Shown: positions 17,424 through 62,606, counted from the stretch's first letter. The stretch is DNA of 64,000 nt from Candidatus Nanohaloarchaea archaeon (GCA_013343275.1 CP046106.1:480001-544000), one strand, 5' to 3'. Notes: generated from the sequence alone by a model not told the origin. Numbers and translations are program-made.

Positions 17424-17566
17424 TGGGAAAGCCGGGAATCGAACCCGGGACCTCTGCGTATCTCACAAACGAATTGTTTTATTTAATCATCAAGGCCTTC
17501 CGTCGGCCTCTCATTGCTCATAAAGTTGTTATGAGCGCAGCGCTCTAACCGCTGAGCTACTTTCCC
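17424..17566 (-). tRNA. tRNA-Met(CAT), elongator, with a 70 nt intron at position 37/38
   Basis: Full cloverleaf GGGAAAG..CTTTCCC-A, anticodon arm CTGCG-CT-CAT-AA-CGCAG; canonical bulge-helix-bulge (CTCA/TGAG helix, TA|A and AT|A bulges). Confidence 0.92.
17460..17529 (-). ncRNA. tRNA-Met intron, candidate C/D-box guide RNA
   Basis: TTATGAGC is antisense to tRNA positions 31-38, followed by A, a D-like ATGA, an AGGCC/GGCCT stem-loop and C box TGATGA. Confidence 0.6.
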
Positions 17567-17679: not shown

Positions 17680-17753
17680 TGGGTTCGCCCGGATTCGAAC
17701 CGGGGATCTCCGCCATGTCAAGGCGGTGTCATAACCAGCTAGACCACGAACCC
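17680..17753 (-). tRNA. tRNA-Val(GAC)
   Basis: GGGTTCG..CGAACCC-A acceptor stem, CCGCC-TT-GAC-AT-GGCGG anticodon arm, GGTTCGAATCC T-loop. Confidence 0.95.
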
Positions 17754-24926: not shown

Positions 24927-25664
24927 ATGGATATCAGAAACCAGTACAGTTCTTTCAGGGATCAGGTCAAGGAGTTCGATGATATATACTTTATTTTCCT
25001 GGCTGTTCTCCTGGCATTCGGTACCCTTCAGACAACCGGAGCTGTTCTTGACACAGAGAAGCCTGTTGTTACCGTAGTTTCGCCATCCATGTGCCCGGAG
25101 CTACAGGTAGGAGACATCCTTTTCGTTAAAGGAGCTTCATACAGCAACATCCATGAAGGAGACATAATTGTATACAATGTCCCTGACAGAGTGGAATTCA
25201 CGGTAGGAGAGAGGAGGTATGTTCTGGAGCAGAATCAGAGCGGCACCCCATCAGTTGTTACTTCTATAGGCCGTTTCTCACTTCTCGGTGTCGATCCTGC
25301 ACGCGACAGAGACAACGACAGAGTTAGAATGTCGCTGAACGGAACCCAGCTGGAACCAATGTTTGAGGGCGAGAGCTACAGCATATCAGGCCGTAGCGTT
25401 GAGATCACATATGCTACAGATTTACCTCCTGGAGATATCCCTATCGTCCACAGAGTCGTGGAGAAAAATCCCTCCTATCTTGAAACTATGGGTGACGCCA
25501 ACACAGGGCAGCTCGAGTTTGAGAAGCATGTTGAGCCAGATCAGATTCACGGCAAGGTTTTCTTTGAAATTCCTCGTGTCGGCCTTGTAAAGCTCTGGAC
25601 TATGGACTTGCTGGGGTATGCTGGTGACAGGCCTTTCGTTATTGATAACACTCCTTCGTGCTAG
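24927..25664 (+). CDS. Signal peptidase I (Sec11/S26), with an insertion
   Basis: TM, VVSPSMCP (catalytic Ser), GDIIVY, IVHRV and TMGDAN motifs. Confidence 0.8.
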   Translation: MDIRNQYSSFRDQVKEFDDIYFIFLAVLLAFGTLQTTGAVLDTEKPVVTVVSPSMCPELQVGDILFVKGASYSNIHEGDIIVYNVPDRVEFTVGERRYVLEQNQSGTPSVVTSIGRFSLLGVDPARDRDNDRVRMSLNGTQLEPMFEGESYSISGRSVEITYATDLPPGDIPIVHRVVEKNPSYLETMGDANTGQLEFEKHVEPDQIHGKVFFEIPRVGLVKLWTMDLLGYAGDRPFVIDNTPSC

Positions 25665-25705
25665 AAGTAGTTAATTTAAAGGTTGGTTGTTTAATCTATG
25701 GCAAT

Positions 25706-26041
25706 ATGGACTTCTGTGACGAATGTGGAGGAATGCTTGTATCCCAGAAGAAAGATGGGGAAACAGTAATGGAGTGCCGTGACTGCGGTCATGTTCAGGA
25801 CGTAGAGGGCGGTGACTACAAGGTAACTGAGGAGAAAGAAGACGATCCTATGAACCGTCTGAACGTTAATGAAGAGGGAGGCGACGAATCCACAAGGCCG
25901 ACTACGACAAAAGAATGCAAGAAGTGCGGTGAAGAGACAGAGCAGGAATGGTGGATGGAGCAGACACGTGCATCAGACGAGCCGGCCACACGTTTCTACA
26001 AGTGCCGTCAGTGCGGTAACGTGTACAAAGAATACGATTAA
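25706..26041 (+). CDS. tfs: Transcription elongation factor TFS
   Basis: Two zinc ribbons and the QTRASDEP acidic hairpin. Confidence 0.93.
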   Translation: MDFCDECGGMLVSQKKDGETVMECRDCGHVQDVEGGDYKVTEEKEDDPMNRLNVNEEGGDESTRPTTTKECKKCGEETEQEWWMEQTRASDEPATRFYKCRQCGNVYKEYD

Positions 26042-26043
26042 AC

Positions 26044-26670
26044 CTATTCTTCCTCTATCTCTACATTTTCAGCATCTATTTCATCGACAACAGAGTTCAA
26101 AGAAGTTCTAAGCTTACTTAACTCTCTATTAATCTTCTCAGTCCTGTTCTCAAACTGTGACTTCTCAACCTTGCTCTCAAGATCCCACTCCTGTCGATTC
26201 GAGTCAAGGATAAACTCCTCCTCGATCTCGCTGACCTTGTCCTCCAGGCTATTTACCCTCTCAAAGATCTCTCTATCCTGATTATCAATTTTGCTCTCAA
26301 GCTTCGAAACGCGGTTCTCAAGCCTCTGAGAGTCAGCTTTCTGGTTATTTAATTTCTGCTTCAGAGAAGAAATTTCGCTCCTGACATCATCCTTACTATC
26401 GTTAAGCTGCCTGAGCTTCTTATTCTGTTTAGACTGGATCTTGCTAAGTCTGCGGAAAATCCTCTCCAAGTCGTTAAGATCCTGCTTGTTTTTCTCAACA
26501 TCAGCCTGAAGGCCTTCAGAGAAATTCTGCTGAAGAGAATTGAAACGTGACTCAAAATCCTGAAGTGCGTTATCCATCGCATTAACGTGCGACTGAAGAG
26601 ACTGAATCTGTTCCTCTAACTGTTCAGTATTTTCAGCTGCCTCCTCACCTTTCTGACCTAACAAGTCCAT
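26044..26670 (-). CDS. Hypothetical long coiled-coil protein
   Basis: Heptad pattern over ~190 aa. Confidence 0.7.
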   Translation of the reverse strand: MDLLGQKGEEAAENTEQLEEQIQSLQSHVNAMDNALQDFESRFNSLQQNFSEGLQADVEKNKQDLNDLERIFRRLSKIQSKQNKKLRQLNDSKDDVRSEISSLKQKLNNQKADSQRLENRVSKLESKIDNQDREIFERVNSLEDKVSEIEEEFILDSNRQEWDLESKVEKSQFENRTEKINRELSKLRTSLNSVVDEIDAENVEIEEE

Positions 26671-27330: not shown

Positions 27331-28083
27331 GTGTTTAAAGCAGAAATCGAAGATGTTGGACTTCTACAGGACTCAATGAAAACCATTTCAGACCTAATCA
27401 GTGAAGGCCTATTCCAGTTAAAGGATGACGGCATTCACCTGGTTGCAGCAGACCCTGCAATGGTAGGTCTGGTAGATTTCCACATCGAAAAAGACGTATT
27501 CGAAAACTACGAACTTGATGAAGAATCAAAAGTAGGCCTAAATCTAGAAAATCTATACTCAATTCTTCGAAGAGCAAACAGCGATGACACAATTACTCTC
27601 GAAGTAAAGGACGACGAATCCAAGTTTTACATCAACATGGAAGGCCGCAGCACGAGAAACTTCTCACTGCCGATCCTCAATCTTTCAGAGGACGACATTC
27701 CTTCCACAGACCAGCTTGACTTCACATTCGAAGGAGAACTCGAGACAAAAGTTCTCGAAAGCGCTATAAAAGACGCGATGGTCGTCTCAGACTCCGTAAC
27801 AGTAACGGCCTCAAAGGACAGCATCGAGATCTCGGCAGAAGGCGACCAGTCCGATGTAGACTTCAAGATTACAGAGGACTCAGAAGGAGTACTGGAGCTT
27901 TCAGGAGAAGAGGCCAACTCAATGTTCAGCCTCGATTACCTGTCAAAGATGATCGGCGCCAAGAAACTATCAGATACAGTCACAGTCAAGATGGCCGACG
28001 AATTCCCAGTCAGACTGGAGTTCGAGATCCCAGATGAGGCCAACCTGAGCTTCGTACTGGCACCACGCATAGAAGAAGATTAA
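27331..28083 (+). CDS. pcn: PCNA sliding clamp
   Basis: AADPAMVGLV, FSLDYL and C-terminal LAPRIEE. Confidence 0.96.
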   Translation: MFKAEIEDVGLLQDSMKTISDLISEGLFQLKDDGIHLVAADPAMVGLVDFHIEKDVFENYELDEESKVGLNLENLYSILRRANSDDTITLEVKDDESKFYINMEGRSTRNFSLPILNLSEDDIPSTDQLDFTFEGELETKVLESAIKDAMVVSDSVTVTASKDSIEISAEGDQSDVDFKITEDSEGVLELSGEEANSMFSLDYLSKMIGAKKLSDTVTVKMADEFPVRLEFEIPDEANLSFVLAPRIEED

Positions 28084-28215
28084 CTTCTTTCTATGCTTAA
28101 ACCAGAAGATCTCTGATCTTCGGATCCACGCATCGAGGAAGACTAAGGCTTCTCACGTGCTCTAAGAAGCATTATTGAATGCTTCGTCACGTATTGAAGA
28201 GGATTAAACCTCTTC
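28063..28215 (+). repeat. Three synonymous copies of the PCNA 3' end separated by double-hairpin units
   Basis: CCACGCATAGAAGAAGATTAA (28063), CCACGCATCGAGGAAGACTAA (28126), TCACGTATTGAAGAGGATTAA (28187), with inverted repeats in between. Confidence 0.85.
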
Positions 28216-28265
28216 CCACCTCTTATTTTTCCTAATTTTCTCATCTAAGTAAAAAGAAAGAAAAT

Positions 28266-28952
28266 TTATTTCTCTGATTCAGCGCCGAAGTAAACTACCG
28301 AATCTAGAGGCCCAGAGAAAGCATCCTGAACCCTCTCAACCACACCAGAGAACAGTTCGGAATCTGATTCCCTGTAGGCCCCGAAAGGTATCGGGAAATC
28401 ACTCTGGACATCATAATCAAGGCCTTCCAGCCATTCTTCAACTTCTTCATCGCTGTGAAGTGTACTGCCTTCCGGCATATCATCGTTCAGGTCAGCCATC
28501 CTGCCGTTGTATAGTTTTCTGGCGCTTGACTCGCTGAACACATCGAATACAAAACCTTCCTCTGCTACACGGTTCATCTCATCAATAACTTCTTCCTCAT
28601 CCCCTACAAGGTGGAAAAGCCTTGGAGCAACTATATAATCGAATGCATCGTCCTGATAAGGGAGTCTGTGAGCATCGACACGCACAGCATCTTCCACCCG
28701 GTTATTTGCGACTGCTGCCTGAAGAGGCTCCTGCTCTATATCCGCTGCAAAATTCTCGTAATCATCCAGATACTCTGAAAGCAGTGCAGGGCCTGAGCCT
28801 AGTTCAAGTATTTTATCTCCCTGTTGTGCGCCGAGGCCTTCAAGCATCTCCTCGAAGTTGTGGTTCTGTCTCTCGAGCACCTTCTTTCCGCCGGCGGAAG
28901 AGTACCTTCTCTCTACATAGGTTTCCGGGTCTCTGTATATTTCTTCAGGCAT
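28266..28952 (-). CDS. Class I SAM-dependent methyltransferase
   Basis: LELGSGPA and DAHRLPYQDDAFD motifs. Confidence 0.85.
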   Translation of the reverse strand: MPEEIYRDPETYVERRYSSAGGKKVLERQNHNFEEMLEGLGAQQGDKILELGSGPALLSEYLDDYENFAADIEQEPLQAAVANNRVEDAVRVDAHRLPYQDDAFDYIVAPRLFHLVGDEEEVIDEMNRVAEEGFVFDVFSESSARKLYNGRMADLNDDMPEGSTLHSDEEVEEWLEGLDYDVQSDFPIPFGAYRESDSELFSGVVERVQDAFSGPLDSVVYFGAESEK

Positions 28953-29036
28953 AGAGACTGTTTACGCAGAAACTTTTTTATCTGAAATCTCGATGTGAGG
29001 CCGGGATTTTTACAGTTTCCTACCGCAATACTAACC

Positions 29037-30440
29037 ATGTCAGAGAAGGGGGGTGAGAAGAGGCCGCAGGACTGGAAGATACGCCAGTACTACGAACAGG
29101 AAGGCCTTAAGGAGAAGATTCTTGACATAGCTGAGTACCGCGAGATCGCTCCTACCTACCCAAACGGTTACGGTAAAAGGCCTGATGCCATCAACTTTCC
29201 AGGCGACTTCCAGGCCCTGGTTGAGGACGGTGCGGTCGCGTTCCATGCCTCTGTTGAGCGGTGGCGTAACCCTCTGCTGATCGACAATGTTTCTGACCTG
29301 GATCAGCTGCGTGAGGCCTGGGATCTGGTAATAGATATCGACTGCGACCACTCATTTGAACTTGCGAAAGATACTGCAGAACTTGTTCTCCGCGAACTGA
29401 AGGATCACGGTATCGAGAATATCAGTGTAAAATTCTCCGGTAACCGTGGATTCCATATCGGAGTCAGGGGGGAGGCCTTCCCTCAGGAGATCGACCAGCA
29501 GGAAATCTCCGATCTATACCCTCGGCTTCCGCGAGGAATAATTGATTACATCCGCGAGAACCTCAGAGATGAAATGGTAGAGCTAATCAAAGAATACGGC
29601 CTGGAGGAGAAGATGGAGACCGACAACGGCAGGAAGCCGTACAAGGTCTCCGATATAGAGAATGACTGGGGTCAGCGCCACCTTTTCAGAATGCCTTACT
29701 CTCTGCACGACGGTTCGTGGCTGGTATCACTGCCGATCGAAATCGACCATATACAGGACTTCGAGAAAGAAGAGGCCGAGATCGACAATGTTGAGTTCGA
29801 AACCGATTTCCTCGACGAGTATGAGGAGGGAGAGGCCACTAACCTTGCAGTACAGGCCATGGATTTCCTGGCCGAGCAGGAGGAAGAGCGGAGGGAAGAG
29901 ATCCAGAAGAAGCAGGATCGAGATTTTGAGAGGCCTGAAGATGCTATCCCCGAACAGCATTTCCCTCCTACGATAAAGAATATTCTGGAAGGCCTAGAAG
30001 ATGGCCGTAAGAGAGGTCTATTTATTCTGCTTAATTTCTACCGTACCGTTGGTTATTCATGGGAGGAGATAGAGTCTAAAATCTGGTCGTGGAATGAACG
30101 GAATAAGGAAGAGCTTGGTGAGACTTACGTGAAGTCACAGCTTCGATGGCACCGTGAGAGAAGCGAGGACGTCCCTCCCCCAAACTACGATTCAAACGGT
30201 TACTACAAGGATATGGGCGTCTATGAAGGAGATAACCTAGAGGAGCAGGTTTCCAACCCTGTAAGTTATGCTTTCCGGAAGGCCAACAGGCGCCAGAACA
30301 GTGAAGAAGATGAAGAGGAAAGCAATGAGAGCGATGAGGTTATGGAGTGTCCTTACTGCGGCAAGGAGTACAAATCCGAAGGTTATTACAAGAAGCACGT
30401 GGAGCAGTGCAACGAGGACCTAGAGGTAAAAAAGCTTTAG
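29037..30440 (+). CDS. priSL: Fused DNA primase PriS-PriL (DPANN type) with C-terminal zinc finger
   Basis: WDLVIDID, KFSGNRGFH and RMPYSLH (PriS), then FPPTIKNIL..GRKR (PriL/PriX-like), then CPYC..H..C; located between PCNA and GINS. Confidence 0.88.
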   Translation: MSEKGGEKRPQDWKIRQYYEQEGLKEKILDIAEYREIAPTYPNGYGKRPDAINFPGDFQALVEDGAVAFHASVERWRNPLLIDNVSDLDQLREAWDLVIDIDCDHSFELAKDTAELVLRELKDHGIENISVKFSGNRGFHIGVRGEAFPQEIDQQEISDLYPRLPRGIIDYIRENLRDEMVELIKEYGLEEKMETDNGRKPYKVSDIENDWGQRHLFRMPYSLHDGSWLVSLPIEIDHIQDFEKEEAEIDNVEFETDFLDEYEEGEATNLAVQAMDFLAEQEEERREEIQKKQDRDFERPEDAIPEQHFPPTIKNILEGLEDGRKRGLFILLNFYRTVGYSWEEIESKIWSWNERNKEELGETYVKSQLRWHRERSEDVPPPNYDSNGYYKDMGVYEGDNLEEQVSNPVSYAFRKANRRQNSEEDEEESNESDEVMECPYCGKEYKSEGYYKKHVEQCNEDLEVKKL

Positions 30441-31844: not shown

Positions 31845-32147
31845 ATGGTAAAGATTCCAAAAGAGCAGAGAAGGTACTGTCCTCACTGCGATAAGCATAC
31901 GGAGCAGACAGTGAAAGAAGTTACTAATCGCTCCACAAGCCAGATGAGCAAGAAGCACCGTAAGCGTCAGAGAAAGATCGATAACGGTTACGGATCATTC
32001 CCTTATGAGAATCCGGCGAATCGTAGCCGTGGTGGATCCAATCCTACTTCAGAGAAGAAGGATCTGCAGTTCAACTGCAAGGAATGCGGTAAATCCTGGA
32101 AACCTAGAAACGCTCTTCGAGCTGCGAAGTTCGAGATCGAACGGTGA
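31845..32147 (+). CDS. rpl44e: 50S ribosomal protein L44e
   Basis: YCPHCDKHT..CKECGK; conserved context. Confidence 0.92.
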   Translation: MVKIPKEQRRYCPHCDKHTEQTVKEVTNRSTSQMSKKHRKRQRKIDNGYGSFPYENPANRSRGGSNPTSEKKDLQFNCKECGKSWKPRNALRAAKFEIER

Positions 32148-32214
32148 TTCAATAATGACCGAAAATCAGAGATTTTCTGAGCAAGCAAAAAATCACAGAG
32201 GTGATTTTTGAATG
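32143..32214 (-). repeat. Double-hairpin unit with duplicated SD/start region upstream of rps27e
   Basis: GGTGATTCAATAATG (32143) and GGTGATTTTTGAATG (32200) flank hairpins GAAAATC/GATTTTC and CAAAAAATCAC/GTGATTTTTG. Confidence 0.75.
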
Positions 32215-32385
32215 GCAAGAAACTTTGTAAGAGTAAAATGCAGTGAATGTGGCAACGAACAGACAACTTTCTCCAGAGCATCTACAGAAGTAGAATGCCT
32301 GGTATGTGGAGAAGTTCTCGCGAAGCCAACCGGCGGAAAAGCCGAGTTCCCTGGCGAAGTAGTTCGAGAACTTTCAGTAGAATAA
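32212..32385 (+). CDS. rps27e: 30S ribosomal protein S27e
   Basis: Hand translation [44 protein letters not shown]... Confidence 0.95.
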
Positions 32386-32471
32386 ATTTTCCCTTCTACT
32401 TACTCCCTATCCTAATTTTTACTTTCTAACAGTTCGATTCTCTTTTAAAAATCACTTATCATCATTTCTCT

Positions 32472-51536: not shown

Positions 51537-51932
51537 CTATAGATCGTCGATCAAGTTTCCCAGGGCCTCATCGCCGTACTTGTTTTCGTATATCTTCAGG
51601 TAGCCTAGAATCAGGTCTTCAAAGTTCTCGCGGTGTTCTTCCGCGTCCATATCATTTGCGATCTCTTCAAGGCCTTTCTCGGTCAGCCTGAAGTACTTCC
51701 TGTCGCTGTCTTCAAGACCTCTGTCCTTAACTTCTTTCTCATCCAGCTTTTCGAGAAGGCCTTCGTCCTCAAGTCGCTGAATCAATGGGTATATTGTTCC
51801 ATAGCTGGGGCTCCAGTAGCCTTCCGTCACATCTTCTATTCCTGATACAACGCCGTACCCGTAATTTGGGCCGTTCTCGAACTGCTTGAGCACGCTGTAC
51901 CTCAAGATGTGGCTTGGAAGCTTCTTACCCAT
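51537..51932 (-). CDS. PadR family transcriptional regulator
   Basis: YGY..PSYGTIYP..L..RKYFRLTEKG. Confidence 0.9.
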   Translation of the reverse strand: MGKKLPSHILRYSVLKQFENGPNYGYGVVSGIEDVTEGYWSPSYGTIYPLIQRLEDEGLLEKLDEKEVKDRGLEDSDRKYFRLTEKGLEEIANDMDAEEHRENFEDLILGYLKIYENKYGDEALGNLIDDL

Positions 51933-56476: not shown

Positions 56477-57676
56477 ATGAAAACGAAAGCACTAGCTTTA
56501 ATCACGGCTGCTGCGCTTCTCATGGGCGGAGCTGCAGCACAGACTCAAGACAGCCCACAACTCAATGCAATTCTGATTAACACAGATCCTGCTCCTGTAC
56601 AGTCAGGAGAAGACGCAGAGATAACTTTCAAGATACGGAACAGCGGCGGCGCTACTGCTGAAGACGTAGAGGTTGGATTAGTTGACTCCTTCCCTTTCCA
56701 GCTTAAACCAGACAGGAAGAGGACCTACAGCATCGGAGATATAGGGCCTAGCGATGGAATACAGCTTCCGACGTACGAGGTCCTTGTAGCGGAGAATGCT
56801 CCGGACGGCTCGAACAAGCTGAAGCTGCGGATTTCCCGGGGAGATCTTTCCTACACCGAGACGATCCCTATCCAGGTGCAGAGCCAGGATATAGAGCTTA
56901 ATCTGGCCAATCTGCAGACAGTTCCAACGCAGCTGACACCAGGAACGGAGAACGCAAAAATGGTTGTGGAAGTAGTTAACAACGGTGAGAAAACCGCTGA
57001 AAACGTGGTAGTTGATGTAGGCCTTCCTGAAAGCTTCCAGAAGACCTCCAGCTTCTCTACCCGGCAGGCAATCGGAAATCTGGGTCCTGGACAGGTGAAG
57101 AAGGCGGAGTTCACGTTCGATATACAGAAAACGGCAGAGAAAGGAACTGTAAGGATCCCTACAAACATCACCTACACGACAGGAGAATCAAACAACAGGA
57201 TAACGGAGAGCGCCAACTTCAGATTCCACCTGGCCGGCAAACCACAGTTCAAGGTAGTGGATGTAGAAAGCAACTTGAAGACTGGTGGTACAGGTCAGCT
57301 AAGGATTACAGTGAAGAACACTGGTTCAGAACAGGCCTCTTCAAGCCGTATCAGGGTTCTGGACTCATCTGATCTTCCTTTCAGCTATGATTCTGCAAGC
57401 CATTACATTGGGACACTTGAGCCAGACCAGAATGGGACTGTTGTGTTCGATGTTACAGCAGGGCCAGATGCTGTGGCGAAGAACTACCTGCTTGACTTCG
57501 AGATCCGGGGCGTCAAAGACACCCAGACATATGTAGAGAGCACGACAGTCAAAGTCGACATCGCAGAAGGAGACAGAGATTCAGGCCTTCCTCTCCCGAT
57601 TATAGCAGCTGCACTACTAGCAGCCGCCGGCGCATACATCTTCCGGGAGAAAATTGCAGAGACCCTCAGCAGGTAA
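56477..57676 (+). CDS. COG1361-like exported Ig-fold protein with C-terminal anchor
   Basis: Signal peptide, three CARDB-like repeats (N.G...A..V...IG.L.P) and a C-terminal TM. Confidence 0.8.
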   Translation: MKTKALALITAAALLMGGAAAQTQDSPQLNAILINTDPAPVQSGEDAEITFKIRNSGGATAEDVEVGLVDSFPFQLKPDRKRTYSIGDIGPSDGIQLPTYEVLVAENAPDGSNKLKLRISRGDLSYTETIPIQVQSQDIELNLANLQTVPTQLTPGTENAKMVVEVVNNGEKTAENVVVDVGLPESFQKTSSFSTRQAIGNLGPGQVKKAEFTFDIQKTAEKGTVRIPTNITYTTGESNNRITESANFRFHLAGKPQFKVVDVESNLKTGGTGQLRITVKNTGSEQASSSRIRVLDSSDLPFSYDSASHYIGTLEPDQNGTVVFDVTAGPDAVAKNYLLDFEIRGVKDTQTYVESTTVKVDIAEGDRDSGLPLPIIAAALLAAAGAYIFREKIAETLSR

Positions 57677-57755: not shown

Positions 57756-58940
57756 ATGAACCCGGAGAAAATCAGGAAGGACTTCCCAATTTTCCAGGAA
57801 AGATCTGAACTCAGCTATCTTGACAATGCTGCAACCACGCAGAAACCAGAGGTAGTGACGCAGACGGTAAAGAATTTCTACGAGAAGAAGAACGCCAATG
57901 TTGGGCGAGGACTCTACGATCTCTCCCATGAGGCAACTGAGGCATACAGAGAGGCCCGTATAAAGGTCGCGGACTTCATAAATGCGTCAACGCCTGACGA
58001 AATAGTTTTCGTACGGAACACAACTGAGGCCTACAACCTTGTAGCCGAATCACTCGACTTCATGGGAGACATAGTTGTGGGAGAGATGGCACACCACAGC
58101 GAGCAGCTGCCTCTGAGAAAGAACGCGAACAGACACGGTAAAGAGGTGAAATACATAGAAACAGAAAACGGAAAGCTAAGTGTGGAATCCGCAGAGAAGC
58201 TTATAGACCATGAGACAGGCCTTGTATCTATATCTCACATGTCGAACGTGTTCGGAGCAGAGAACCCGGTAGATGAGATAATCGAGATCGCCAAGGCCCA
58301 CAATGCTATCGTTCTCCTGGACGGCGCCCAGTCAGTACCAAGAATGCCTGTAGACGTAAAGGAGCTGGACGTAGATCTCATGGCTTTCTCAGGACATAAA
58401 ATGCTTGGCCCAACCGGTATCGGCGTACTGTACGGTAAGAAACATGTGCTTGAAAGCATGGAGCCATACCAGGTAGGGGGAGGAATGATCAAGTCAGTAA
58501 GCAAGGAGTCCGCAAGCTGGGAGGACCCTCCAGAAAAATTCGAGGCTGGAACCCCGAACGTGGCAGGCGCAGTAGGCCTCGGTGCTGCGGTAGACTACCT
58601 CAATCAGCTGGACATGGAAGAGGTAAAGCAGCATGACATCGAATTAACCAGTAAAATGATTGAAGGCCTGGAAGAGATTGAAGGTATCGAGGTTCTTTCT
58701 CCTGAAGGATCAAGCCTGGTATCTTTCACAGCTGACTGGGCGCATCCGCATGACGTCGCAGAGGTTTTGAACCAGCATGAAGTCGCTGTGAGGGCCGGCC
58801 ACCACTGCGCACAGCCGCAGATGGAGGAACTTGACATCAATGGCAGTACCCGGGCATCACCATACATCTACAATACGGAAGAAGACGTGGAAAAATTCCT
58901 GGAAGGCGTTAAAGAAGCTAGAGAGGTCTTCAAGAGGTAG
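57756..58940 (+). CDS. sufS: Cysteine desulfurase SufS
   Basis: YLDNAATTQKP, FSGHKMLGPTG and RAGHHCAQP motifs. Confidence 0.95.
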   Translation: MNPEKIRKDFPIFQERSELSYLDNAATTQKPEVVTQTVKNFYEKKNANVGRGLYDLSHEATEAYREARIKVADFINASTPDEIVFVRNTTEAYNLVAESLDFMGDIVVGEMAHHSEQLPLRKNANRHGKEVKYIETENGKLSVESAEKLIDHETGLVSISHMSNVFGAENPVDEIIEIAKAHNAIVLLDGAQSVPRMPVDVKELDVDLMAFSGHKMLGPTGIGVLYGKKHVLESMEPYQVGGGMIKSVSKESASWEDPPEKFEAGTPNVAGAVGLGAAVDYLNQLDMEEVKQHDIELTSKMIEGLEEIEGIEVLSPEGSSLVSFTADWAHPHDVAEVLNQHEVAVRAGHHCAQPQMEELDINGSTRASPYIYNTEEDVEKFLEGVKEAREVFKR

Positions 58941-59656: not shown

Positions 59657-60412
59657 ATGAGTCTAGAAGTCAAAAATTTGGAAGTATCTGTAGAGGAAGA
59701 AGAAATTGTCAGAGGAGTATCCCTGGAGATAGAGCCAGGAGAAATCCACGCGATCATGGGGCCTAACGGCTCAGGAAAGTCTACTCTATGTAAATCCCTG
59801 ATGGGTAACCCTACATACTCCATTGATGGAGGAGAAATCCTGGTTGATGGAGAAGATGTAACCGATGAGGAAACAGATGAGAGAGCACGTGAAGGCCTTT
59901 TCCTCGGATTCCAGTACCCGGCAGAGATATCAGGTATCTCCGTCGCAGAGTTCCTGAAAGAAGCAATCGACGCCCGCAGAGAGGAAGAAGGTAAAGACGC
60001 AATGCCTCAGAGCGAGTTCAATGAGCTTCTCCGTGAAAAGCTGGATCTCCTGGACATGGACGAAGAGTATGCTCGCCGATACCTGAACGAAGGATTTTCC
60101 GGTGGGGAGAAGAAGCGGAATGAGATCCTGCAGATGGCAGTGCTCGAGCCGAAGTACGCAATCCTTGACGAGATCGATTCAGGCCTCGATATCGACGCGC
60201 TGAAGGTAGTTGCGAAAGGTATCAACAAGCTAGCGGATGAGGACCAGGGCATCCTGATGATCACACACTACCAGAGAATCCTTGACTACGTCGAACCCGA
60301 CAGAGTTCACGTCATGGTCGACGGAAAAATAGTCGAATCAGGCGGAGCAGAACTAGCCGAGAAACTTGAAGAAGAGGGCTACGACTGGGCTAAAGAGCAA
60401 ATGGAAGAATAG
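59657..60412 (+). CDS. sufC: Fe-S cluster assembly ATPase SufC
   Basis: GPNGSGKST, FQYP, FSGGEKKRNE and THYQRIL motifs. Confidence 0.96.
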   Translation: MSLEVKNLEVSVEEEEIVRGVSLEIEPGEIHAIMGPNGSGKSTLCKSLMGNPTYSIDGGEILVDGEDVTDEETDERAREGLFLGFQYPAEISGISVAEFLKEAIDARREEEGKDAMPQSEFNELLREKLDLLDMDEEYARRYLNEGFSGGEKKRNEILQMAVLEPKYAILDEIDSGLDIDALKVVAKGINKLADEDQGILMITHYQRILDYVEPDRVHVMVDGKIVESGGAELAEKLEEEGYDWAKEQMEE

Positions 60413-60414
60413 TT

Positions 60415-61065
60415 CTATTTCTTCCTCATTTTCAGGAAAAGATGATCTTTCTCGTAAGGTTCAAGCCTTACTTCATCTAAAACATCAAAACTCTCCTTCA
60501 ATTTCTCTCTAGCCTCTTCAAAGACCTCTTCCGGATCTCTGGATGAGGAAATTGACTGAGCCTTTATAGCGATAAGGCCTACTCCATTTTCTTTGAGGAA
60601 TTTCTCTGCGTTCTTGTTGAAGATTTCAGGTTGATCTCTCTGAGAGATATCCTGGAATACAACATCTACTTCCGGCACCAAATCTTCGTAGTCCTCAGGC
60701 TTCCTTGCGTCTGCTATTATTGGTGCAATATTCTCACGGCTATCTGCTACCTTAACCAGATCTCTACCAACGGTTTCTGAGTACTCAACTGCAAAGACGA
60801 AGCCTTCCTCCAGAATATCGGAGAAATGTGATACAGTAGTTCCCGAAGCGGCACCAAGATAGAGTACATCATCACTCTGAGATAGGTCTAGGTCTATACC
60901 ATTCTTTACTGCTGCTGCAACTTTTGACCTGTTTGCATGCCAGGCCCTGTACTCTACACCATCAATCTCCTGCAGAGACTCTCCATAGACTTTCTCACCA
61001 GGAACCTGATTCTTAGTATACAGATTATCGTTTTGTGAGAAGATTCCAGGCTGTATTTCCTCCAT
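60415..61065 (-). CDS. flpA: Fibrillarin 2'-O-methyltransferase
   Basis: VYGE..YRAW..RSK, VLYLGAASGTTVSH and LEPYEKDH motifs. Confidence 0.95.
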   Translation of the reverse strand: MEEIQPGIFSQNDNLYTKNQVPGEKVYGESLQEIDGVEYRAWHANRSKVAAAVKNGIDLDLSQSDDVLYLGAASGTTVSHFSDILEEGFVFAVEYSETVGRDLVKVADSRENIAPIIADARKPEDYEDLVPEVDVVFQDISQRDQPEIFNKNAEKFLKENGVGLIAIKAQSISSSRDPEEVFEEAREKLKESFDVLDEVRLEPYEKDHLFLKMRKK

Positions 61066-62226: not shown

Positions 62227-62336
62227 AACAAGGTACTGTCCTCTAAAGTTTGAAAACCTTACCGCAAGGCCAACCTCACAAAACATCGAGGTATTTAAGA
62301 AAATAACCGAATAAACCTAGCATACAGTTCCAACGT

Positions 62337-62408
62337 GCGGTGTTGGTCCAGTGGCTAAGACCCCGGCCTTCCAAGCCGGTGACCCGGGTTCAAATCCCGG
62401 ACGCCGCA
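62337..62408 (+). tRNA. tRNA-Gly(TCC)
   Basis: GCGGTGT..ACGCCGC-A acceptor stem, CCGGC-CT-TCC-AA-GCCGG anticodon arm, GGTTCAAATCC T-loop. Confidence 0.95.
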
Positions 62409-62606
62409 AATTTCTCTGGAATTTGCTTGATTAAGAAAATCTCCTGATTTTCGGACGCCGCAAAACTTCTGAAAGTTTTATCATCATAAGCCATGCACTG
62501 CATGGCTTCCGGATTTAGCAGAAGATTTCTAATCTTCGGCACCGCATCCAGAAACATTTCCTTTGCTACTCTAACTTTCGATAGGAAGTTCATGTAGGTT
62601 CCAGAG
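62398..62606 (+). repeat. Repeated tRNA-Gly 3' ends separated by hairpin units
   Basis: CGGACGCCGCAAA at 62398 and 62452, CGGCACCGCA at 62537; at least five inverted repeats in between. Confidence 0.85.

Follow-up and report, generated by a model that had tools for sequence, protein, structure and literature searches.

Why does the 3′ end of the gene for the PCNA sliding clamp stand three times in a row in a nanohaloarchaeal genome, with the copies differing almost only at silent sites? The sequence analysed was a 64-kb window (CP046106.1:480001-544000), and all coordinates given here are counted from its first letter. The best homologue of the pcn product has an E value of 6e-147, and 226 homologues were found at E<=1e-3. 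Those that carry a name are PCNA of Nanohaloarchaea (precomputed Pfam PF00705/PF02747), and the assignment is also supported by the length of ~250 aa and by a replication neighbourhood with primase and GINS51 downstream. The tail residues P245, R246, I247, E248 and E249 did not vary across 25 aligned sequences. The last 21 nt of the gene (CCACGCATAGAAGAAGATTAA, 28063-28083) belong, in the repeat search, to one family of three copies: the reference at 28063, a second copy at 28126 (86%) and a third at 28187 (81%), spaced 63 and 61 nt apart. The parts of the array and the gene that follows it are listed below.

27331..28083, plus strand: pcn (PCNA sliding clamp), 250 aa, ending in APRIEED* (ORF list, homologues)
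28063..28083, plus strand: T1, the working gene end Pro-Arg-Ile-Glu-Glu-Asp-stop (sequence, repeat search)
28067..28096, plus strand: H1, the stop-codon hairpin, with coding 5′ arm GCATAGAAGAAG, loop ATTAA holding the stop, and 3′ arm CTTCTTTCTATGC (fold; the arm covaries with codon choice across species)
28097..28125, plus strand: insert A, made of linker TTAAACCA, hairpin H2a GAAGATC-TCT-GATCTTC (28105-28121), then GGAT
28126..28146, plus strand: T2, the first spare gene end, with three silent differences
28147..28160, plus strand: imperfect 3′ arm of the second H1, GGCTTCTCACGTGC (sequence, fold)
28161..28186, plus strand: insert B, made of linker TCTAA, hairpin H2b GAAGCATT-ATTG-AATGCTTC (28166-28185), then G
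28187-28207, plus strand: T3, the second spare gene end, within the feature 28187..28215
28196-28215, plus strand: T3's own hairpin, GAAGAGG-ATTAAA-CCTCTTC (fold)
28216..28265, no strand assigned: T-rich spacer containing TTATTTTTCC and AATTTTC (sequence)
28266..28952, minus strand: convergent methyltransferase gene, situated, as in L001, between pcn and the gene for primase

The preliminary description of this DNA had claimed that the pcn end is present three times with silent-site differences, and both the repeat search and the sequence confirmed it. The copy at 28126 differs from the working end at three positions, all of them third-position and silent. The copy at 28187 has four mismatches to the working end, three silent and one a C>T change at the first base (CCA>TCA). 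It is true, as had also been stated, that every difference over RIEED* is at a third codon position, the CCA>TCA change of copy 3 falling outside that stretch. Allowing <=3 mismatches, the 21-mer gave 2 matches in the window, against 0.00 expected from 100 shuffles. When the last 21 nt of each of the 241 window ORFs (stop-to-stop, at least 80 aa) were searched for within 200 nt downstream with <=4 mismatches, pcn was alone in being repeated, and the same scan over all such ORFs of 44 related loci again returned pcn and no other ORF. Tandem Repeats Finder reported no array at the pcn end because the spacers of the window's two units are just 27/47 identical (57%).

Each copy of the pcn end supplies the 5′ arm and the loop of a hairpin around the stop codon, H1. 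Folded as RNA, 28050-28250 gave five consecutive hairpins with z = -4.98, and 0/200 shuffles folded equally well; the complementary arms and the two GAAG..CTTC hairpins described earlier are real. The second H1 carries the loop, with the stop codon, in direct orientation, which makes H1 a direct repeat. An inverted duplication centred on H2 was rejected, the second loop being direct and not reverse-complemented. Stop-codon hairpins are common at gene ends in the window's genome: perfect stems of at least 6 bp were present at 6/70 window gene ends versus 37/2000 random positions (Fisher P = 0.0027), and stems of at least 7 bp at 5/70 versus 13/2000 (P = 2e-4). Since archaeal terminators are oligo-T runs, the T-rich spacer at 28216..28265 likely provides the terminators of pcn and of the convergent gene, and the pcn 3′ UTR probably includes the entire array, which precedes the oligo-T runs at ~28228-28245. 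A search of 27900-28400 against Rfam returned nothing at or near gathering score, the best match, SNORD26, reaching 21.3 bits versus a gathering score of 44 and lying on the minus strand outside the repeats. Translation of the spare copies by read-through or frameshift was rejected, the spacing being 61, 63, 64, 65 or 66 nt, depending on the genome, and an in-frame TGA being present in the window.

The next question was whether relatives share this arrangement. A scan of species-representative genomes yielded 44 nanohaloarchaeal pcn loci with 3-kb flanks, two of which (L021 and L044) stop short of the pcn stop codon, leaving 42 readable loci. One extra copy of the gene's own end was found 61-66 nt downstream in five of them, with 2 (L006), 3 (L016), 6 (L020), 4 (L023) and 0 (L029) mismatches to that end. 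No extra copy was present within 400 nt in the other 37, which include L002, counted as single-copy and unreadable from 14 nt past the stop (a run of 100 N). Across 43 genomes the number of extra copies is thus 0 in 37, 1 in five and 2 in the window, a comparison between species; the preliminary description had proposed to look for such variation in unit number among relatives, and it does exist. An assembly artefact is unlikely because the same architecture was recovered in five independently assembled genomes, one of them titled complete (L006, CP012986.1). Array-bearing genomes are scattered on the PCNA tree, where the six require five changes (mean of 5.8 with shuffled labels, 100/500 as low). 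L016 and L023 are sisters on this tree and both have the array; no extra copy is present in L001, L004 or L033, the respective sisters of the window, L006 and L029.

Seven units from six species follow a common plan, namely T, an arm T′, a linker T-CTAA, GAAG[H2]CTTC, G and the next T, where T′ is the reverse complement of T and places the stop codon in the H1 loop. In the unit alignment the next T again carries an arm, or the remnant of one, on its 3′ side. Successive T copies are separated by 40-46 nt, and the part outside the hairpin arm is an insert of 26-30 nt made of the linker and the GAAG..CTTC hairpin H2, in 7/7 pcn units. RNAalifold recovered H1 and H2 from the unit alignment, 9/20 pairs being changed on both sides in at least one sequence, and the arm tracks the synonymous codon choice of its own T: the arm of L016, TCCTCGATGC, fits GAG codons, and the arm CCTCTTC of the window's copy 3 fits GAAGAGG. 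The spacer between the H1 arms ranges from 5 to 11 nt among species, and a Xer/dif-like or other fixed recombinase core was rejected for that reason. All six pcn arrays, as well as an array at a tRNA-Gly gene described below, obey the rule that n inserts lie between n+1 gene ends, which fits the successive insertions proposed earlier better than one simple tandem duplication. Reading the sequences of the 37 single-copy loci by eye, we found no H2 without a second T. H1 is present in the single-copy loci L022, L033, L007, L012 and L002, and its occurrence alone in several such loci fits an ancestral H1 and events that add an insert together with a second H1.

The pattern of substitutions was then examined in the spare copies of all six species. 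When each of the seven spares was compared with its own working end, 16/19 substitutions were silent (stop-to-stop changes counted), and the three non-silent ones were all at the first base of the repeat; within RIEEX*, 15/15 were silent. The L020 spare has also undergone the in-frame loss of one Glu codon. Under a null model that lets the copy drift and allows the working end silent change alone, P ranged with the assumed transition bias from 1e-5 to 2e-3 over 21 nt and from 3e-8 to 3e-5 over 18 nt, the seven comparisons being partly dependent in that two share the window's working end. The earlier argument that neutral decay cannot explain the silent pattern is upheld by this pooled test. 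Seven of the silent differences are in the last codon or the stop, that is, in the H1 loop, where pairing sets no constraint. The spare copies of L016 and L023 differ from each other at 4/21 sites, three silent and one at the repeat's first base, whereas ~11 differences would be expected from the four-fold sites of pcn, which are 47% identical (P = 0.0015). As these two spares differ far less than four-fold sites do, the constraint acts on the spare in place. The spares are thus constrained as spares and are not merely fossils, and the proposal that each copy was "once" under selection as a working end is not supported in that form.

The inserts are also similar between species. Insert A (with arm) is 36/43 identical to the L029 spacer and insert B 33/44 identical to the L006 spacer, the four-fold identities of pcn being 0.35 and 0.43, respectively; for the inserts of L016 and L023 the figures are 35/46 and 0.47. 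The spacers therefore appear to be conserved far above neutral sites. A compensated change in the H2 stem (G>A/C>T) separates the window, with GAAGATC/GATCTTC, from L029, with GAAAATC/GATTTTC. Given their low identity, inserts A and B are not recent duplicates of each other, and the window array is a composite of two old or imported unit types.

Hairpins of the H2a family are not confined to pcn. The pattern GAARATY-N3-5-RATYTTC was found four times in the window versus a mean of 0.065 and a maximum of 2 in 200 first-order Markov simulations, and once in the other 272,609 nt of the loci, at the pcn gene of L029. No H2 hairpin of type B, C or D was seen outside pcn. Palindromes cluster at three places in the window, at 28067-28215, 32161-32209 and 62406-62537, the last two belonging to the following features.

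32143..32211, minus strand: a hairpin of the H2a family (32161-32177) and a second hairpin (32188-32209), between rpl44e and rps27e
62336..62546, plus strand: tRNA-Gly(TCC) and five hairpins, two of them of the H2a family (62435-62452 and 62521-62537)

The tRNA-Gly gene is bounded at 62336-62409 by ARAGORN and at 62337-62408 by Rfam. Its 3′ end, CGGACGCCGCAAA (62398-62410), recurs exactly (13/13) at 62452-62464 and weakly at 62538-62546. The array opens with the tRNA end, which is also part of the 5′ arm of a first hairpin; next come a linker, a hairpin of H2a type and the exact 13-nt copy of the tRNA end, and then three hairpins, of which the last is of H2a type, and the weaker third copy. 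It folds with z = -3.84, and no Rfam family was at or near gathering score in the tRNA-Gly trailer. Between rpl44e and rps27e the gap is 64 nt with two hairpins in the window versus 13 nt in L041, and GGTGATT..ATG stands there twice at a distance of 57 nt; whether the target was duplicated is ambiguous here, because GGTGATT might serve for ribosome binding or form a hairpin arm. A scan for direct repeats (12 nt, <=1 mismatch, 40-95 nt apart) gave 30 matches in the window versus 4-6 in shuffles, nearly all inside coding regions, and tRNA-Gly was the sole further case of the pcn kind. Two candidates taken as intergenic, at 57673 and 24679, proved unrelated on reading. A third candidate taken as intergenic is at 51664. 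In the 44 loci the direct-repeat scan returned nothing beyond the pcn arrays; these loci contain no tRNA genes whose ends could be checked for repeats. The process is general, since the H2a family is also found at tRNA-Gly together with a repeated tRNA end, and its recurrence at pcn across species is special.

The pcn feature is real, recurrent and statistically supported. For its origin we favor, with a confidence that we would put at about even, a reiterated terminator-hairpin module that arises by insertion with target duplication, is resized by recombination between copies, and has its spare ends kept usable. Each event would add one insert and duplicate the target H1, leaving n inserts between n+1 gene ends, much as if a small hairpin element had inserted and duplicated a long stretch of its target. 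Units would later be lost or gained when the direct copies recombine or slip, and the differences between species suggest that such contraction and expansion have occurred. Any contraction would turn the downstream copy into the working end of an essential gene, so that a lineage with a damaging change in its spare would pay for it. Alternatively, gene conversion from the working end might overwrite the spare; either way, spares would change at silent sites only. Part of the silent pattern could come from gene conversion or from an RNA-pairing constraint instead of selection on spare ends. The target duplications differ in length, being 13 nt and perfect at tRNA-Gly, 21 nt and perfect in L029, and up to ~35 nt and diverged in L006, and we know of no transposase that yields duplications of such varying length (13 to ~35 nt).

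Several other explanations have to be weighed against this model. Whole cassettes (gene end, arm, linker and H2) might have been imported horizontally by recombination at the invariant PRIEE[DE]*, each copy then being the former working end of another lineage; we consider this possible but unlikely, and it can be combined with the favored model. The high spacer identity between distant species and the absence of units in the sister species L001, L004 and L033 could reflect horizontal spread instead. In the same direction, the window's last 13 codons are 82% identical to those of the sister L001 and 90-92% identical to those of the distant L029 and L026. The window and L001 differ at 49/753 pcn positions, and 7/13 of the last codons differ, including CGC versus AGA for Arg. 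The divergence of this 3′ end has a permutation P of 0.005 if the window of codons is pre-chosen and of 0.30 for any 13-codon window, because the middle of pcn is as divergent; the excess is thus not unique in the gene. CGC, a minor codon (84/890 Arg codons in the window), is used at all six array-bearing ends versus 3/37 others (Fisher P = 1.4e-5), a bias compatible both with a common imported end and with an ancestral one that the hairpin has frozen. The L001 assembly breaks precisely at the pcn end, where a run of 100 N joins two contig ends that share a 55-nt overlap, which hints that the assembly graph branches at this point. However, no copy in the window resembles the end of L001, so that no displaced original end is visible, and copies 2 and 3 have no exact match among the 42 working ends, the nearest to copy 2 being that of L020 with 1 mismatch. 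The sisters L016 and L023 share a spacer type, showing that selection alone can keep 76% spacer identity, and import alone leaves the in-place constraint on the spare unexplained. Of the earlier claim that a gene end was brought in from another strain, the codon differences from L001 still stand when the 3′ end is taken by itself and lose their force when any part of the gene is admitted, which makes the claim a weak one. A further explanation is that the copies are relics of site-specific integration, that is, attL/attR-type sites of viruses or plasmids that targeted the 3′ ends of pcn and tRNA-Gly and brought a replacement end. Direct repeats of a 3′ end at a protein gene and a tRNA gene, one repeat overlapping the 3′ end of the target gene as in att-type sites, are the classic scar of such events. 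In Thaumarchaeota, 14/68 integrated elements are in 3′-distal regions of protein genes; elements may also stand in tandem, and the target gene can receive its new stop codon from the element (PMC6563490). A preprint on nanohaloarchaeal viruses describes, in the portion available, a provirus and spindle viruses encoding a tyrosine integrase, and that portion names no pcn integration site (bioRxiv 10.1101/2025.02.15.638363). The downstream order of genes is conserved, with pcn, 0-4 small variable genes, a fused primase, GINS51 and an amino-acid kinase; the variable genes encode MsrB, NUDIX, the minus-strand methyltransferase, unknown proteins and small HTH proteins. Against the larger islands or proviruses that had been suggested for this site, no integrase, transposase, capsid or Cas family was found in the 148 ORFs within 3 kb downstream of pcn in the 42 loci, nor, Cas1 included, among the 70 window ORFs. 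The insert between the copies is just 26-30 nt long in every unit, and internal deletions that leave the same small hairpin every time are implausible. The 3-kb flanks of L026, L027 and L032 contain no further pcn end at a greater distance; over the flanks and the whole window, the search for distant copies returned a single coding-region look-alike (21435, minus strand). Blastn of 28040-28270 against phage and plasmid collections gave no match. Integration relics are accordingly an improbable explanation, clearly more so than import, and the pcn array is probably not a prophage scar.

The spare could also belong to a switch formed by the RNA of the pcn 3′ UTR, with the first arm pairing either with the working end (local) or with the spare (long, capped by H2), so that the spare must stay complementary and hence looks "coding". 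The minimum-energy fold does pair the first arm with the second copy around H2 in 4/5 of the other species, with z of -5.3 in L006, -5.0 in L029, -3.4 in L023 and -2.1 in L020, and the single-copy L001 folds no better than shuffles (z = -0.03). The conservation of the spacers well above neutral sites, and the fact that silent GAA/GAG changes keep pairing via G-U, are consistent with a switch as well. However, such a long fold is possible in any H1-H2-H1 array, and at 3/3 stem positions where the copies differ, two in the window and one in L016, it is the working end that the arm complements. Together with the silent-only differences in the loop, which is free of pairing constraint, this argues that pairing with the spare does not explain the pattern. 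The downstream genes differ among species, so that there is no common regulatory target, and sister species do without the element. We therefore regard the switch as improbable, marginally more so than integration. Least probable of all is that the array arose by a single plain tandem duplication and has since decayed neutrally, or that it reflects chance or faulty assembly. Just 7 differences can be counted in the window itself, and purine-rich acidic-tail codons beside pyrimidine-rich terminators make some chance complementarity likely. Opposed to this are the pooled silent-site test, the recurrence in 5 other assemblies, the compensatory changes in the hairpins, the absence of the repeat from all 100 shuffles, and the fact that the inserts are unlike in type and yet each has a relative in another species.

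A more specific form of the insertion model can be proposed, although we consider it doubtful and slightly less probable than import. A ~30-nt miniature hairpin element (TGCT..A-GAAR..YTTC-G) might insert beside the terminator palindromes of essential genes (pcn, tRNA-Gly) and duplicate 13-35 nt with a Cas1-like geometry; the spare ends would be held by second-order selection, because repeat-mediated deletion makes any spare the working end. Such an element of Nanohaloarchaea may be so far undescribed, and in the literature we found no description of nanohaloarchaeal inverted repeats at stop codons or of intergenic repeat hairpins. If this reading is true, untranslated DNA would be evolving under codon-level constraint.

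How does the array compare with known systems? CRISPR spacer uptake duplicates a ~30-nt palindromic repeat, and at pcn a palindromic "repeat" of ~30-35 nt likewise alternates with a "spacer" of ~26-30 nt. The pcn repeats are, however, just 81-86% identical, and their "spacers" are shared between species at 75-84%, which sets them apart from a CRISPR array, whose repeats are nearly the same and whose spacers are unique and unrelated. Casposon or Cas1-type integration adjoins a tRNA 3′ end and makes a 15-bp target duplication, and short TIR-derived duplexes were inserted in vitro by the casposon system (PMC5137440). There as here, a short piece of DNA is inserted and the adjoining target duplicated, and the 13 nt duplicated at tRNA-Gly are the last tRNA bases, just past the T-loop. 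H2 is a 7-8-bp palindrome and could be two minimal inverted ends. In contrast to Cas1 systems, the duplications here are 13 to ~35 nt long, not 14-15, the "spacers" are conserved hairpins common to several species, and Cas1 is absent among the 70 ORFs of the 64-kb window.

REP/BIME sequences sit in 3′ UTRs and affect mRNA stability, and to our knowledge REPs do not duplicate a neighbouring gene end. Like these hairpin clusters of bacteria (PMC2817692), the window has a family of short imperfect intergenic palindromes after stop codons, well above the simulated number (4 versus 0.065), and regularly spaced clusters of different hairpin types. REP/BIME systems have many copies per genome and an associated RAYT transposase; H2a occurs 4 times in 64 kb, and no RAYT or IS200-type gene is present in the 64-kb window. 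The integrated elements of archaea (PMC6563490) resemble the array in having direct repeats of a gene 3′ end, a working gene whose end and stop are left intact, several successive repeats, and a tRNA and a protein gene affected in one genome. They differ from the pcn array, which has no cargo or integrase, has a 26-30-nt hairpin insert between the repeats, and has spares that appear to stay under coding-like constraint. Compared with a minisatellite or VNTR, the array shows 0, 1 or 2 extra units in 43 genomes and, with spacers 57% alike, escapes Tandem Repeats Finder. The MIRU-VNTR minisatellites of mycobacteria overlap gene ends, their intergenic units of 50-100 nt carrying the flanking stop or start codons and varying in number. 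Unlike these, the pcn units are hairpin pairs, neighbouring spacers are unlike, and the variation is between species.

If the favored model holds, the array would be a clear example from nature of non-coding DNA that is held under purifying selection as if it encoded protein, the reason being that recombination can make it coding. It would also suggest that DPANN archaea, about whose mobile DNA little is known, harbour a small hairpin element that leaves an unusual insertion signature. Even as a mere array of terminator hairpins, it would still be a conserved feature of the pcn 3′ UTR with a possible bearing on mRNA stability. For annotators, it is a warning that direct repeats of a gene end alone do not mean a prophage. 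In practical terms, the pcn end provides a length-variable marker beside a conserved gene; metagenome assemblies also break here, as the gaps at exactly this point in L001 and L002 show.

The end of pcn, the sliding-clamp gene, seems to be a break point of assemblies. In three related nanohaloarchaeal pcn loci, all from MAGs of one series, a run of Ns, each exactly 100 long, lies at or just after the end of the gene:

L001, 3750-3849, 100 N
L002, 3478-3577, 100 N
L029, 3915-4014, 100 N

The L001 gap has the identical 55 nt on either side of it. The record of a further pcn locus, L007 (JBLGBK010000003.1), is titled as a MAG from the bacterium Colwellia polaris. Its pcn is nanohaloarchaeal (80% identical), and genes for primase, GINS and the kinase accompany it in the usual order; mislabelling or contamination of the L007 bin is the probable cause.

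In the window (28995-30440) and in most loci, the primase gene near pcn encodes one polypeptide of about 450-480 aa. It was matched by small-subunit models and, in several loci, also by large-subunit models, which suggests a PriS-PriL fusion. The small genes between pcn and the primase gene form a variable set (MsrB, NUDIX, methyltransferase, unknown 250-aa proteins and HTH proteins). A weak match to SNORD26, a C/D-box snoRNA model (28216-28290, minus strand; 21.3 bits and E = 0.049, short of the gathering score, 44), sits in the spacer between the array of pcn ends and the methyltransferase gene.

An intron-containing tRNA of 143 nt was found at 17424-17566 on the minus strand by the Rfam tRNA model (60.4 bits), with no ARAGORN call there. 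Its anticodon, read by eye, is CAT, and the gene sits a short way downstream of tRNA-Val (17680-17753).

Hairpins were also observed at other genes. The genes for the ABC ATPase and fibrillarin (59657-61065) are convergent and have one palindrome in common, GGAAGAATAGTTCTATTTCTTCC (60403-60425), which contains both stop codons; likewise, a second convergent pair (25658-26038 and 26047-26670) has both stops in one common palindrome (26028-26051). The putative rps27e ribosome-binding sequence, GGTGAT, is sequestered in the hairpin AAAAATCAC-AGAG-GTGATTTTT (32188-32209), and a stop-codon hairpin is present at the 3' end of the same gene (32376-32400). On the minus strand, GAAAATTGGGAAGTCCTTCCTGATTTTC forms a hairpin with a 12-bp stem, G-U pairs allowed (57767-57794), at the start of a cysteine desulfurase-like gene (57756-58937).
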